Shown: positions 6,077 to 10,898 of the stretch, piece by piece
Numbering within the stretch: the first letter of the stretch is position 1
Layout: each line of letters opens with the position of its first letter
NCBI GenBank assembly: GCA_964248365.1
Contig: CAXTYC010000039.1
Location: 1-48,353, forward strand
Source: an uncultured Chroococcidiopsis sp.
Lineage (GTDB): Bacteria; Cyanobacteriota; Cyanobacteriia; Cyanobacteriales; Chroococcidiopsidaceae
Reading direction: 5' to 3'
DNA length: 48,353 bases
Translations under genes and position numbers: made by a program
The notes under the pieces: generated by a model
What the model was told of the DNA's origin: nothing
Databases searched by the model: none
What the model saw: the letters and a program-made list of their open reading frames with translations, nothing else

Positions 6077-6268
6077 AATAAAGTGCGATCGCCGCTCTTG
6101 TAGGGTGCGTTAATAAAATGTAGCGCACCCAATAACTTTAGTGCGATCGCCGATCTTGTAGGGTGCGTTAACGAAGTAACGCATCAACTTTAACGCACTC
6201 AACGCTAACAGATTAATTTGGCGGGAAAAAATGGGTATTTTAAGACAACAAATCATCGATGAATACCC

Positions 6269-6295
6269 ATGCCCAATTACCGCAGAGCCAAACAG
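6269..6295 (+). pseudogene. 5' remnant of a RAYT gene (MPNYRRAKQ) with its upstream region
   Basis: 6140-6295 aligns with 38504-38659 (REP + leader + RAYT start); truncated at AG|TGCGATCAC. Confidence 0.8.
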
Positions 6296-6502
6296 TGCGA
6301 TCACATAGCTTGTAGTGCGTTAATGAAATGCAACGCACCAACTCAACCGATAGTGCGATCGCCTGTAGCCTGTATGTTGGCTTGAGGAATGAAACCCAGC
6401 TATTCTAAAATTGCGATCGCGTGGAAATTGGTTTGGGGATCGAGAGCGCGATCGCCGATCTTGTAGGGTGCGTTAATCAAATGCAACGCACCGAATAACT
6501 TT

Positions 6503-6623
6503 AGTGCGATCGCCTGTTGTAGGATGGGCAAATGGACATGATTCCTGATGAAATTGTCAAATTATCAGAATTTGCCTATCCTACCCCTCCAAGTGCGATC
6601 GCTAATCTTTTAGCGGCTGTCTT
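6503..6623 (+). repeat. REP-doublet module copy 1 (GTAGGATGGGCAAAT...ATTTGCCTATCCTAC); further copies at 7459-7652 and ~9172-9356
   Basis: Three near-identical direct copies read in the sequence, each with GTAG/CTAC-terminated inverted arms. Confidence 0.85.
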
Positions 6624-6756
6624 TGCGATCGCTTCTACGACAATATAATCAGGACATAGATATTGTCTATCGCGTACAATGCGATAGACAATATCTTCTA
6701 GTGCGATCGCCCGCTCTTGTAGATATTGTAGGGTAAGCCAACGTAGTTAGCCACTC

Positions 6757-7356
6757 TTAAAAATTTATGCGACGATAGATTTCAGCCAGAGGAATTTCTA
6801 CATTTAAACTGTGCAGAACTACCGCTTGCTGGATATCAGAGTGAACCTGCCATAGCCAGCGATCGTTACTGTGGCGATCCTGGTTATAATACTGCTCAAT
6901 GTAAGGTTCAGTTTGACTCACGAGCAGATATTCACAAAAGCTGGCAACAGAGCGATATTTTCTAAACTTTTCGCCTCGATCGTAGGCTTCAGTGGAAGGA
7001 GATAGAACCTCGACAATCAGTAAAGGATTGAGAATTTCATCATTGCGATCGCCATTGAACTTTGGGAAGCCATTAACAACCATCAAATCGGTATAAGTAC
7101 CACACTGATATTCAGGAATCCAAACTCGCAAGTCACTGTTATACAAACGAAAATCGGTGTCTCTCAGCAAAAAACCCAAGTAAATTAATAAGTTGCTGGC
7201 GATCGCACTGTGGGCTTCTGAACCTCCCGACATAGTAATAATCTCACCGTTGCGGTATTCATGACGTTCTGGGCTGGTTTCTTCCATAGCCCGATACTCG
7301 TCTAATGTGAGGCGAATTGTTATTACATCTGGGGGACTGGTTTGAGTAAAGACCAC
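6757..7356 (-). CDS. Uma2 family (DUF820) PD-(D/E)xK endonuclease
   Basis: EYRNGEIITMSGGS..H; NPLLIVEVLSPSTEAYDRGEKFRKYR; EYLLVSQ. Confidence 0.9.
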   Translation of the reverse strand: MVFTQTSPPDVITIRLTLDEYRAMEETSPERHEYRNGEIITMSGGSEAHSAIASNLLIYLGFLLRDTDFRLYNSDLRVWIPEYQCGTYTDLMVVNGFPKFNGDRNDEILNPLLIVEVLSPSTEAYDRGEKFRKYRSVASFCEYLLVSQTEPYIEQYYNQDRHSNDRWLWQVHSDIQQAVVLHSLNVEIPLAEIYRRINF

Positions 7357-7761
7357 AATCAGACCTCTTGAATAATTAGCTCTAAAACTATTATCAGTGC
7401 GATCGCCGACGAGTGTAGGGTGCGAAGCAGGAAATGTAACGCACCCAATAACTACTTTAGTGCGATCGCCTGTTATAGGATGGGCAAATGACCATGATTC
7501 CTGATGAAATTGTCAAATTCTCAGAATTTGCCTATCCTACCCCTCCAAGTGCGATCGCTAATCTTTTAGCGGCTGTCTTAAAAGTCAAGCGATGCACTCA
7601 AGTATGATGGTTGATGAGCCAGCGATCGGACGATCGTCTAGAGTGCGATCGCGCCATTATTTGCTGGTTCAACCTGACTAAAAAGCGATCGCCACATATC
7701 GATAACTTACAATTTGAGTAAAAAGCCTTTGCGTATTATAGTTTGTGAGCCGAAGAACTCT

Positions 7762-8040
7762 ATGAACTGGAAAATAGAAGAATCGCAGCAAAAATTCTCT
7801 GAAGTAATTGATGCCGCAATTGCAGAACCACAACTGATTTACAACCAAGACAAAGTGGTAGCAGCCGTTGTAGAAATTGAAATATTTCAGAAATTCTTAG
7901 CTTGGCAGCAACAGCAGCACCAACCTTCCCTTGCAGATGCCTTTACCCAATTGCGTCAACTTTGTGCAGAGGAAAACTACACCATTGAAATACCCGATCG
8001 CGAAAATCGTTTTCATCCCTTTGTTGATAGCCTACCGTGA
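7762..8040 (+). CDS. Phd/YefM-type (prevent-host-death) antitoxin
   Basis: MNWKIEESQQKFSEVIDAAIAEPQLI...VAAVV pattern; overlaps the PIN gene start (GTGA). Confidence 0.75.
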   Translation: MNWKIEESQQKFSEVIDAAIAEPQLIYNQDKVVAAVVEIEIFQKFLAWQQQQHQPSLADAFTQLRQLCAEENYTIEIPDRENRFHPFVDSLP

Positions 8041-8432: not shown

Positions 8433-8641
8433 CCTCAAGTGCGATCGCACCAACGGTTGGGTTTCGCTGGGAAACCCAACAACTTGATGTTCACACATAC
8501 CCGAAACATTACGGTTTACTTTAACTAAATGCCTTCAGATCGTAGTGCGATCGCCGCTCTTGTCATGTGCGTTAATGAAATGTAACGCACCATCTACGAT
8601 CAAAAAATATACAAACTGTCAAAGATAAGGAGTCTGATAAT

Positions 8642-8824
8642 TTGCCAACCGCAGCACAATCTATTCAAGCTGTGATTCTTTGTCAGTGGTTGTCTAATGG
8701 TTATCAACCGATCAACATTTTTCGCTATGACTCTAAATTAAAAACGATTTATATTCAAGGAGGTGGCAATGATGAAATCGCATTAGTCATCTATTCTGAT
8801 GGAAACTGGAGGTTTTTATCATGA
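8642..8824 (+). CDS. Small cyanobacterial protein, DUF6888-like (candidate toxin)
   Basis: MPTAAQ...CQWLSN.YQPI..FRYD pattern; RBS AAGGAG upstream; coupled to the next ORF. Confidence 0.6.
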   Translation: MPTAAQSIQAVILCQWLSNGYQPINIFRYDSKLKTIYIQGGGNDEIALVIYSDGNWRFLS

Positions 8825-9012
8825 CTGATTTAACGCAAATGACAGTCACAGAAATAAAACAATATTTATCTGAAAATCGCAGTGATGATGATAAATTTAG
8901 TGAAGCACTAGCAGAATTATTAAAGCGCGATCCCAATCCTGTAATTTATTCTAAAGATCTGCCTTTGGAAGAGCAAAAACGAATTTTCATGGAAAAAATC
9001 ACAAAACATTAG
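8821..9012 (+). CDS. Small cyanobacterial protein, DUF6887-like (candidate antitoxin)
   Basis: QMT..EIKQYLSENRSDDDKF..AL pattern; ATGA overlap; its stop TAG forms the AG of the next junction. Confidence 0.6.
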   Translation: MTDLTQMTVTEIKQYLSENRSDDDKFSEALAELLKRDPNPVIYSKDLPLEEQKRIFMEKITKH

Positions 9013-9447
9013 TGCGATCGCCTGTAGGTTGGGTTTTGCTGTGAAACCCAACCGCTCAATTTTCACACATACCCGAAGCATCACGGTTTACTTTAATCCC
9101 AAATCGGGTCAACAACTTGTAGGGTGCGTTAATGAAATGTAATGTACCCAATAACTACAAAAGTACGATCTCTGCTCTTGTAGGATGGGCAAATGGACAT
9201 GATTCCTGATGAAATTGTCAAATTATCAGAATTTGCCTATCCTACCCCTATAAGTGCGATCGCTAATCTTTTAGCGACTGTCTTAGAAGGTAAGCGATCG
9301 CTCATGTATGATGGTTGATGAGCGTGTGATCGGACGATCATCTAGAGTGCGATCGCCATTTTGGAGTGCGATTGTTCTTCAATTAAGTGGCAAGCTCCCG
9401 TTTTGCTAGACTAAAAACACATCTCGTCAAGCAGGATTTTTGGAGCT

Positions 9448-10010
9448 ATGAGCGCCACAACTGCCCAGCCCCTCACCCTAGAAGAATTTCTTCATCTCCC
9501 AGAAACCAAGCCAGCAAGCGAATATATAAACGGTGAGATCGTTCAAAAGCCAATGCCAAAAGGGAGACACAGCCGCTTGCAAGGTAAACTCTGTGCTGCG
9601 GTCAATCAAGTTGCAGAGGATCGGAGAATAGCCTATGCGTTTCCACAAATTAGGTGTAGCTTTGGGTCACGCTCCATCGTACCCGATGTGGCTGTATTTG
9701 TGTGGACACGCATACCATTTACCGTTGATGATGAAGTTCCCGATAACTTTGAACTCCCCCCAGACTGGACATTGAAATCCTCTCACCAGAACAAAAACCA
9801 AATAAAAAGATCGGCAACATTCTGCACTGTCTGAAGTACGGTAGCCGCCTGGGATGGTTTCTTGACCCTGATGACTTTAGTATCTTAGTATTTTTACCAG
9901 AGCAACAGCCATTGCTGCTCCAGGGAAAAGATTCTTTACCCGTCTTACCAGAAATTGAGCTTGCACTAACTGTCGAACAAGTTTTTGGTTGGTTAAAAAT
10001 GGGTAGTTAG
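9448..10010 (+). pseudogene. Uma2 family endonuclease, frameshifted
   Basis: LTLEEFLHLPETKPASEYING...PPDWT, then frame change near 9770 to IEILSPEQ...GSRLGWFLDP...VEQVFGWLKMGS*. Confidence 0.85.
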
Positions 10011-10124
10011 TATCGTGCTATGTGTCTGCTATTGCCATCAAGCGTGCGATCTATCGCCCGATCTTGTCGGGTGCGTATAGCCATTAACTTCGGTAGATGC
10101 CTATTACAAATAGACAAAAAATAT

Positions 10125-10710
10125 TCACCAGATTTGGGCCAAATCCAAAACAAAACCTGGTAAAATATCCTCTCCCAATAAAGTTTGTGAACCTTGTAAA
10201 ATTTCAACTTCTTGATTGGGACGATAAATTTCTACCTGCTGCTGTTGGCGATTAATTAACCATCCCAGTCTTGCGCCATTATCTATATATTCCCTCATTT
10301 TGGCGCGTGTCTTTTCTATGGAATCACACTGAGACATTAATTCAACCACAAAATCGGGACACAAAGGAGCAAATCTTTCTTTTTGGGCTTGAGTCAAAGC
10401 GTTCCACCGTTCCATTTTCACCCAAGACGCATCTGGGGAGCCCTCCGCACCGTTAGGAAGTTTGAAACCACCGGAAGAATCAAAGGATTTGCCGATTCTG
10501 TTTTGGCGACTCCAAGCTCTTAACTGATAAGTTAGATCGGCCGCCGCGATCGCCCTTTTCACTTCCCATAGGTGGCATAATAATGACTTCCCCCGTAGCT
10601 GTGCGCTCGAATCTTAAGTCACGGTTATTTTGACAAAGCTGAAAAAATTGCTCGTCAGTTAAGTTAATATTTAATTCGAGGAAAGCAGGTATGACGGTAT
10701 TAGCGTTCAT
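10125..10710 (-). pseudogene. Uma2 family endonuclease, frameshifted
   Basis: LTDEQFFQLCQNNRDLRFERTATGEVIIMPP and SPDASW...LCPDFVVELMS...GARLGWLI lie in different frames; shift at ~10545 beside a HIP1 site. Confidence 0.85.
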
Positions 10711-10898
10711 ATTATTTGTTAAGATAGCAGCAAGATATTCCTCAATTTTTAGTATCGCTTTTGTTGCGACAGTCTTAAAAGTCAAGCGATCGCTCAATGA
10801 TGACAACATCAAACCCAACCAAACCTTAATTTTTTTACAAATTCGATTGGGAGGTAGTGGAGTTAAACTTTAGGGAAGCACTGCAAATCCCTTAGTCC

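Follow-up and report, generated by a model that had tools for sequence, protein, structure and literature searches.

The stretch of DNA analysed here (hereafter, the window) is the entire 48-kb contig C39 (CAXTYC010000039.1, 48,353 nucleotides) of an uncultured Chroococcidiopsis sp. (assembly GCA_964248365.1; source genome G000, 5.58 Mb), and it was compared with other genomes (G-numbers) and loci (L-numbers). Inside a locus for an extracellular contractile injection system (eCIS) it holds two arrays of the motif AGTGCGATCGC, in which the highly iterated palindrome HIP1 carries an AGT flank, and each array begins no more than 6 bases beyond the stop of a gene with the eCIS_core domain (DUF4157). 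A sequence-only reading had taken the first array for an integron-like series of captured gene cassettes; array 2 and its REP-associated tyrosine transposase (RAYT, or TnpA-REP), and the RAYT 5' stub in array 1, were absent from it. We propose, with a probability of roughly 55%, that this motif marks the fixed end of an element of the repetitive extragenic palindromic (REP)/bacterial interspersed mosaic element (BIME) type. The element would be non-autonomous and belong to a cyanobacterial RAYT; it would stack, duplicate and at times carry adjacent genes along, exchange at HIP1 coming later.

The arrays and their units

The arrays are real. Counting exact copies on both strands, the window holds 29 AGTGCGATCGC motifs. 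Array 1 has 15 on the plus strand and one on the minus strand between 6082 and 9346, compared with a shuffle mean of 0.03 per window; array 2 has nine on the plus strand between 36346 and 39259, one of them palindromic and so counted on the minus strand too; three lie outside both arrays. G000 contains 5561 HIP1 sites, that is 11122 half-sites, of which 412 are AGT-flanked. When 412 half-sites were drawn at random in 1000 trials, the maximum was five same-strand sites per 3.3 kb, compared with the 15 observed (four with this contig excluded), so the clustering suspected from the letters alone exceeds chance, and a genome-wide scan found more than three sites together solely in arrays 1 and 2. 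HIP1 elsewhere in the window indeed mostly lacks the AGT flank, which is present at 3 of the 49 sites outside the arrays.

The first site of array 1 begins 5 bases past the stop of eCIS_core gene 1, as had been seen, and the degenerate sites are one-mismatch copies at 6294, 6410, 6445 and 7042. A single orientation had been claimed for all sites; 15 of the 16 exact ones share a strand (p = 5e-4), but a minus-strand site lies at 7199 within a Uma2 gene. The GTAG and hairpin said to follow many sites are present as well, with GTAG within 14 nt at 7 of the 15 array 1 sites, degenerate hairpins after three more, and GTAG after three of the nine array 2 sites; the hairpins of the arrays fold.

Table 1 Features of the two arrays and the adjoining eCIS_core genes (window coordinates).
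Feature	Position	Strand	Evidence and remarks
eCIS_core (DUF4157) gene 1	3605..6076	+	Pfam PF13699, E = 1.2e-31; unique C-terminal tip
Array 1	6082..10793	+	15 exact sites; empty REP units and cargo; distal end is HIP1 10786-10793
58-bp unit	6082..6139	+	Putative fixed end and single GTAG REP hairpin
RAYT stub unit	6140..6295	+	Putative fixed end, REP and 5' RAYT stub (start 6269)
Empty three-unit block, copy 1	6445..6623	+	~58 + 89 + 93 bp; third unit shortened here
Uma2 no. 1	6757..7368	-	Intact
Phd antitoxin and PIN toxin module	7714..8432	+	Pfam; PIN has one internal stop
DUF6888 and DUF6887 unit	8544..9021	+	Pfam; open reading frames (ORFs) open
Uma2 no. 2	9448..10010	+	Frameshifted; common to congener G002 at the same locus
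Uma2 no. 3	10125..10710	-	Pfam; frameshifted; most distal cargo
eCIS_core gene 2	34818..36344	+	Pfam
Array 2	36346..39292	+	9 exact plus-strand sites; PIN, RelE-like and BrnT modules, RAYT
PIN module, array 2	36356-36959	-	Pfam
RelE-like module, array 2	37210-37703		Pfam
BrnT module, array 2	37930-38413	-	Pfam
RAYT/TnpA-REP	38632..39184	+	NF047646, 177.7 bits (cut-off 80); frameshifted near 5' end

Relatives of the 58-bp unit occur at 6294, 6445, 7396 and 8544, and another, at 9116, is without the fixed end. The three-unit block is present three times at 85–95% identity (other copies at 7396-7641 and ~9116-9345), its 89-bp unit being a long hairpin whose two feet are GTAG and CTAC. Searched by BLAST across G000, the empty units matched this contig alone. 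The RAYT stub is cut at AG and fused to the next site (6294), and its unit is 86% identical to 38504-38657.

Pfam confirmed every cargo family that had been named from the sequence (three Uma2, Phd/PIN, DUF6888/6887), but these are not all whole, since Uma2 no. 2, Uma2 no. 3 and PIN are broken. Gene stops had also been described as ending at junctions: the TAG at 9010-9012 does provide the AG of its junction, and DUF6887 and PIN fit the description, but it is no general rule. A long same-strand ORF ended within 80 nt of the site in 24 of 77 flanks and exactly at TAG in one, and stop-codon targeting was rejected as a rule.

The element end and its joints

Across the cyanobacterial order, in many families, we found the element end as AG followed by TGCGATCGC-N7-GTAG-hairpin, the joint lying directly after AG and unrelated DNA lying upstream. 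A pattern that kept the REP constant but allowed any flank beside HIP1 matched 78 of the 201 genomes of the order and produced two control matches. The composite search listed 150 matches, 143 of them not from G000, and among these listed matches a hand count (33 further matches lie outside it) gave the AGT flank in 59 of the 143 HIP1+REP composites, compared with 412 of the 11122 half-sites in G000; the sequence beyond this flank is free. At 80 metagenomic loci, out of at least 125 found, the 16 nt between AG and GTAG are conserved together with the hairpin, and information in the 77 distinct upstream flanks never exceeds 0.19 bit per position; the search pattern demanded AG, so these loci inform on the boundary alone. 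The composite site had no match among viral contigs, and an Rfam search returned none at E ≤ 1.

Homologous flanks that lack the site were informative in 19 cases, drawn from 198 distinct sites in all loci. AG was already there in 16 of the 19, with T next in 11 of those (background 6%). The TnpA-REP of Escherichia coli cuts between C and T (C/T), also inside CTAC, and can join any 3'-OH to the T (PMC3333891, PMC8266576; these and the other papers quoted below for background and comparison are cited from their accessible parts). Because a plus-strand AG reads CT on the minus strand, a pre-existing AG fits a C/T cut on the opposite strand, and in runs of 20-bp units in G068 and G152 the AG of GTAG is the joint between successive units, in keeping with the published CTAC cut. 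The same kind of joint also falls inside genes, namely in the RAYT stub at 6294, DUF6887 in G184 and DUF6888 in L176. Most of the traceable joints lie after AG and not within HIP1, which places HIP1 in the element end and does not evidently make it a recombination core.

The other end is less regular. Copy-to-copy breakpoints lie near AG in 11 of 45 cases and otherwise after CTAC or in HIP1, so a right end at AG was unconvincing as a general rule, and the element, as read from these copies, has one fixed and one variable end. We inspected seven loci, picked because the pattern was already visible there, and saw in several of them direct copies of a flank, 125–1451 bp long, that enclose the element and stop at AG or a few bases from it: 186 bp in L104, 144 bp in L052, 125 bp in L160, at least 134 bp in L148, and 1451 bp at 98% identity in L069. 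These duplications resemble models of BIME amplification and clusters of REPINs (REP doublets), apparently extended to the size of genes.

The hairpins proved to be RAYT-type REPs, as had been supposed: they are GTAG-footed, and the same family flanks this RAYT subfamily and is present around most of 30 RAYT loci. The window RAYT, by family assignment an enzyme with a single catalytic tyrosine (Y1), shows, by eye and with no tree, the DHFH/WE/YIHYNP motifs tabulated for E. coli subclass 2.2, and minus-strand REPs at 38567 and 39219 flank it. A HIP1-footed end adjoins the RAYT gene in 5 of the 30 RAYT loci. This RAYT occurs in 12 of 17 genomes having such ends compared with 39 of 133 others (p = 0.002 from a hand count that assumes genomes up to G165 in both samples and in which kin are not independent). 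Fused RAYT stubs occur too, joined to other DNA in the window and to HicAB in G004. The GTAGGGTGCG seed has 48 copies in G000, of which 38 lie outside this contig, and these REP copies are dispersed and intergenic. G000 also carries a second RAYT with an open frame (C1:339340-339885, L077), 45% identical to that of the window; the commonest REP family of the genome (GTAGGGTGGGC seed, 174 copies) may be its substrate.

The C/T joint in the 16 of 19 flanks lies on the strand of the inverted REP. A second REP is present in doublets and around the RAYT, and absent in the 58-bp units; the minus-strand REP is supplied by the doublets, by the double-footed 89-bp unit and by the REPs at 38567 and 39219.

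Cargo, relatives and injection-system genes

G005, with flanking genes 88–92% identical, has neither eCIS_core gene 1 nor array 1, and its empty allele carries HIP1 at the distal boundary, where array 1 ends. In G002 and G003 the same kinase is preceded by an eCIS_core gene, a site and different cargo, in the order DUF29, HicAB, Uma2 in G002 and HicAB, DUF29 in G003, with a leader of 65–100 bp common to both units. The comparison of orthologous loci that the sequence-only reading had suggested thus bears it out that gene content differs among relatives. G002 and the window have only the distal Uma2 genes in common, and one metagenomic contig joins a different tip to the most distal Uma2 alone; with the decay of the distal genes, these few comparisons give hints of array growth at the proximal side. 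eCIS_core gene 2 and array 2 form an insertion (~34748-39310) between VgrG-like and gp25 genes that is empty in all three congeners having the operon (G002, G003 and G005). Its left boundary against G005 falls after AG (one case) and its right end just past a HIP1. Judging from these alleles, the eCIS_core gene is no fixed platform, as it is missing together with the array in congeners. Sequencing runs searched for the window shared at best 0.16 of its words, all in contigs of other organisms, and short joints in those runs carry no weight in the analysis.

These alleles bear on the view that HIP1-directed recombination is the main driver, with HIP1-bounded modules excising and integrating at other HIP1 sites and AGT and REP as passengers. 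We consider this improbable. It draws support from the swapped order of DUF29 and HicAB between G002 and G003, from the HIP1 at the boundary in the empty G005 allele and just inside the end of the second island, and from a published link of HIP1 to site-specific recombination (PMC4390886); yet the thousands of genomic HIP1 sites form two clusters only, site-free homologs without any HIP1 diverge after AG, and the common leader explains the swap too.

Cargo genes are 91–94% identical to those in genomes of other families, compared with ~77–92% for the flanking genes against congeners, which indicates recent transfer. Cargo boundaries often lie on sites, as expected from the cassette reading. 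Homologs of Uma2 no. 1 in three other genomes part exactly after the AG of site 7396, the Phd/PIN module is 93% identical to G380 starting at site 7642, and several homologs of the array 2 PIN module and of Uma2 no. 3 share the boundary and have a site of their own there, which is often degenerate. DUF29 and HicAB units recur as units in congeners; the RAYT units of L075 and L080 have one end in common with L164, L209 and L087, at 91–96% identity in differing contexts; and in G004 a HicAB module with unrelated surroundings is fused to an end, REP and RAYT stub (L319, G004 C2, ~182600-183000, on a small plasmid-like contig). Full-length homologs were found for 21 of the 50 units that run from site to site, most of them being repeat retrievals of the same locus, and two units were flagged as keeping both ends in a new setting. 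The DUF6888/6887 unit is a real case, recurring in G184 with HIP1+REP at both ends in a different neighbourhood; the other relies on a HIP1 inside hicB. Recurrence with identical boundaries therefore holds for one window unit but fails for three of four, and with a single fixed end and few right breakpoints at AG the cassette array stands only in part. On present comparisons, genes would travel with the element end, not as precisely bounded integron-style cassettes.

The main rival is passive invasion, in which a mobile REP stacks in dispensable hot spots such as toxin islands, integrons and toxin–antitoxin clusters, and the genes came otherwise, by transformation or homologous recombination, the element marking and trimming them. 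We regard it as unlikely, if a serious contender. In its favour, the same ends occur in true integrons that have canonical attC (L059), one or both sites are missing from most cargo homologs, and REPINs are described as clustering by insertion into or beside REPINs, in tandem repeats with flanks (PMC3116915). It does not readily accommodate the long L069 duplication ending beside an element end, the DUF6888/6887 and HicAB units that keep their boundaries across contexts, a RAYT gene that retains one end in differing contexts at 91–99% identity, or the frequency of the site after eCIS_core genes (see below).

Several observations also weigh against the REP/RAYT proposal itself. The evidence for it is comparative throughout, and the enzyme is assigned by family identity, adjacency and the chemistry of the junctions. 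The RAYT of the window carries a frameshift, and the other full-length RAYT of G000 is the 45%-identical one; a query with this window RAYT had no match in G002, G003 and G004, though all three carry sites; and the 38 REPs of the same family off this contig have neither a HIP1 foot nor arrays. Many of the 19 informative flanks belong to related Microcystis-like contigs. The E. coli TnpA is inactive on the inverted REP alone (PMC8266576/PMC3333891), so with C/T on the inverted-REP strand the 58-bp single-REP units need a second REP or are derivatives. The G002/G003 swap breaks at HIP1, not AG. Of the four window units that have full-length homologs, a single one is seen again in a different setting with both of its ends: none of 14 Uma2 no. 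1 matches has both ends, and the RelE-like and RAYT units also fail.

Under the REP/RAYT proposal, a RAYT bound to the inverted REP would cut the minus strand at C/T, both where the element ends and in DNA close by, and then rejoin strands. One-ended joining or a rolling-circle-like extension could add same-orientation units beside existing REPs, and the same joining might truncate genes at internal AGs and duplicate or carry adjacent genes. Common leaders and HIP1 sites would permit secondary exchange that reorders modules. TA (toxin–antitoxin) and Uma2 genes may be retained because they are small and selfish, and eCIS_core toxin genes would travel with such arrays. The window copy of the system is probably decaying.

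We profiled the ends of eCIS_core genes in 40 loci, one per genome and mostly in list order, from the 74 of 201 genomes with the domain (45 scorable genes; four near-kin genomes and G138 were skipped, and the second entry was used for G130). The exact motif lay within 100 nt past the stop in 7 of the 45 eCIS_core genes of other genomes, compared with 12 of 2514 other long G000 ORFs (Fisher p = 1.4e-8) and a within-locus expectation of 0.4%; without two loci noticed beforehand near RAYT/Uma2 matches it was 5 of 42. Four further eCIS_core genes from earlier-fetched loci had no exact motif. In G209 the 89-bp unit known from the window stands directly behind an eCIS_core gene. The link is not exclusive, as ends also follow ordinary genes, precede TA-type ORFs (~15 of 61 scanned) and sit in real integrons.

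Since DUF4157 is a reported signature of eCIS toxins (PMC11297309), the two eCIS_core proteins of the window are predicted toxins. Their tips had no NCBIfam match, that of gene 1 had none in Pfam either, and no obvious immunity gene lies downstream of gene 1. The tip of gene 1 has, by eye, an HAE...PCxxC pattern that we take to be like that of nucleic-acid deaminases. A HIP1 at 4435-4442 lies right after its eCIS_core domain, where homology to G003 stops; it is common to G003 and one base off in G002 and gene 2, and it was not counted as a sign of tip swapping at HIP1. Between the halves of the eCIS locus (10899-27928) lie two Ser/Thr kinases, FHA proteins, a two-component pair and a WD40 gene; the eCIS gene arrangement differs in G002 and G003. 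IS240-type DDE transposase fragments (44609-45042 and 47834-48328) surround a TetR and MFS pair at the contig end. Elsewhere, L062 (168-9329, labelled Acetobacteraceae, probably misbinned cyanobacterial DNA) holds a nuclease-tipped toxin gene, an SMI1/KNR4 gene and 10 same-strand sites with HIP1, and L061 (6571-15413, Anabaena) has TIR and caspase genes, then an element end, then a very long run of TA modules.

REP dissemination has been called 'poorly understood' (Corneloup et al., PMC8266576), and a host benefit of unspecified kind has been suggested for RAYTs (Bertels et al., bioRxiv 10.1101/119735). The REP family described here leaves base-resolved footprints that match C/T chemistry known in vitro, and it pinpoints a single substrate and cut site. 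The TA, nuclease and XisH/XisI genes whose proximity led to their prediction as eCIS cargo (PMC11297309) may be array passengers, or the array may supply them. Gene carriage, if true, would be a new route to TA- and toxin-rich cyanobacterial islands and a concrete role for one subset of HIP1. A more far-reaching and tentative idea, in our view doubtful, is that a horizontally mobile cyanobacterial RAYT and its HIP1-footed REP form a one-ended gene-capture platform, a counterpart of integrons based on an HUH (histidine–hydrophobic–histidine) enzyme. It would build polar TA/nuclease arrays behind eCIS toxin and other newly gained genes and move the eCIS_core gene with its array within the injection-system cluster, HIP1 easing uptake and reshuffling.

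Comparison with known systems

Integrons and integrase-less attC clusters (CALINs) are oriented arrays of TA and small genes with strain-variable content. The window array is likewise oriented and strain-variable, with TA and small genes and apparently older cargo distally; unlike them it has neither attC nor IntI, its unit bounds are loose, genes are cut internally and cargo lies in both orientations. None of the 42 window ORFs is an integrase by Pfam, and our own attC heuristic (not IntegronFinder; a first version failed its positive control and was replaced) found no attC-like site in the window and two in the control L059, in line with the sequence-only reading. L059 is a true integron whose canonical attC differ from the HIP1-REP ends interspersed among them. 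On these features the window array is not an integron. Of the 80 metagenomic loci, 11 have IntI no more than 3 kb away, and most of these represent one Microcystis-like locus. That integron (L059 5775-14187; L150, L153, L173, L184, L190, L071) has canonical 86-bp attC and many HIP1-REP ends all directed away from intI, and its IntI often ends after about residue 113. An integron integrase acting in trans on the hairpins as atypical attC might fit the uniform orientation, the TA-rich cargo and this co-location with ends always pointing away from intI. We judge it very improbable: the attC scan separates window from control, G000 holds merely one frameshifted intI fragment on another contig (C10) with no site beside it, and conservative site-specific recombination would not be expected to leave flank duplications or joints at arbitrary AGs within genes.

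IS91 and ISCR elements perform one-ended rolling-circle capture with an HUH enzyme of the Y2 type, from one fixed end, and pick up adjacent DNA. The window element resembles them in having an HUH enzyme, one fixed and one variable end, and flanking DNA picked up, and differs in its Y1 RAYT, two-base target and REP hairpin ends; no Y2 (IS91-family) transposase was matched among the 42 window ORFs. SDR5 of Nostoc is also a small mobile repeat tied to HIP1, but it inserts between HIP1 bases 3 and 4 (PMC4390886), whereas HIP1 is intact in all exact window sites. Beside the prochlorosin procA genes, TnpA-REP and its fragments likewise lie among genes with a constant N-terminus and a variable C-terminus, and diversification has been proposed (bioRxiv 10.1101/2020.03.09.984088); that enzyme is of subclass 2.1, the causal link is not established according to its authors, and the accessible text gives no junction rule.

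In the literature searched (supplements and most subscription papers lay outside the search), we found no description of HIP1-footed REPs or REP-bounded gene arrays. Four traits are without a match there: the HIP1 foot, the gene-sized flank duplication, the apparently mobile RAYT and the bias to eCIS_core 3' ends. The REP family itself may already be listed in the consensus tables of PMC3733652 and PMC6006769.

The closest likeness is to REPs. REPIN clusters of Pseudomonas fluorescens SBW25 are also tandem with flanks and arise by insertion into or beside existing copies (PMC3116915); unlike the window array, neither they nor domesticated RAYTs (bioRxiv 10.1101/119735) are reported, in the parts cited, with gene cargo. 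RAYTs are described there as mostly vertical, whereas the window-type RAYT is 91% identical between families in differing contexts. For the E. coli REP/BIME system, unit excision and integration and rolling-circle amplification have been proposed (PMC3333891, PMC8266576). The fixed 16-nt foot with HIP1, the whole-gene units and the gene-sized flank duplications set the window element apart, with no such case in the accessible parts of those two papers. The joints at C/T, some of them inside CTAC, resemble those of the E. coli enzyme but lie on the strand of the inverted REP. Shared with that system are GTAG-footed hairpins, inverted doublets, a RAYT among them and dispersed copies, and by these testable sequence features the array is a member of the REP/BIME–RAYT kind.

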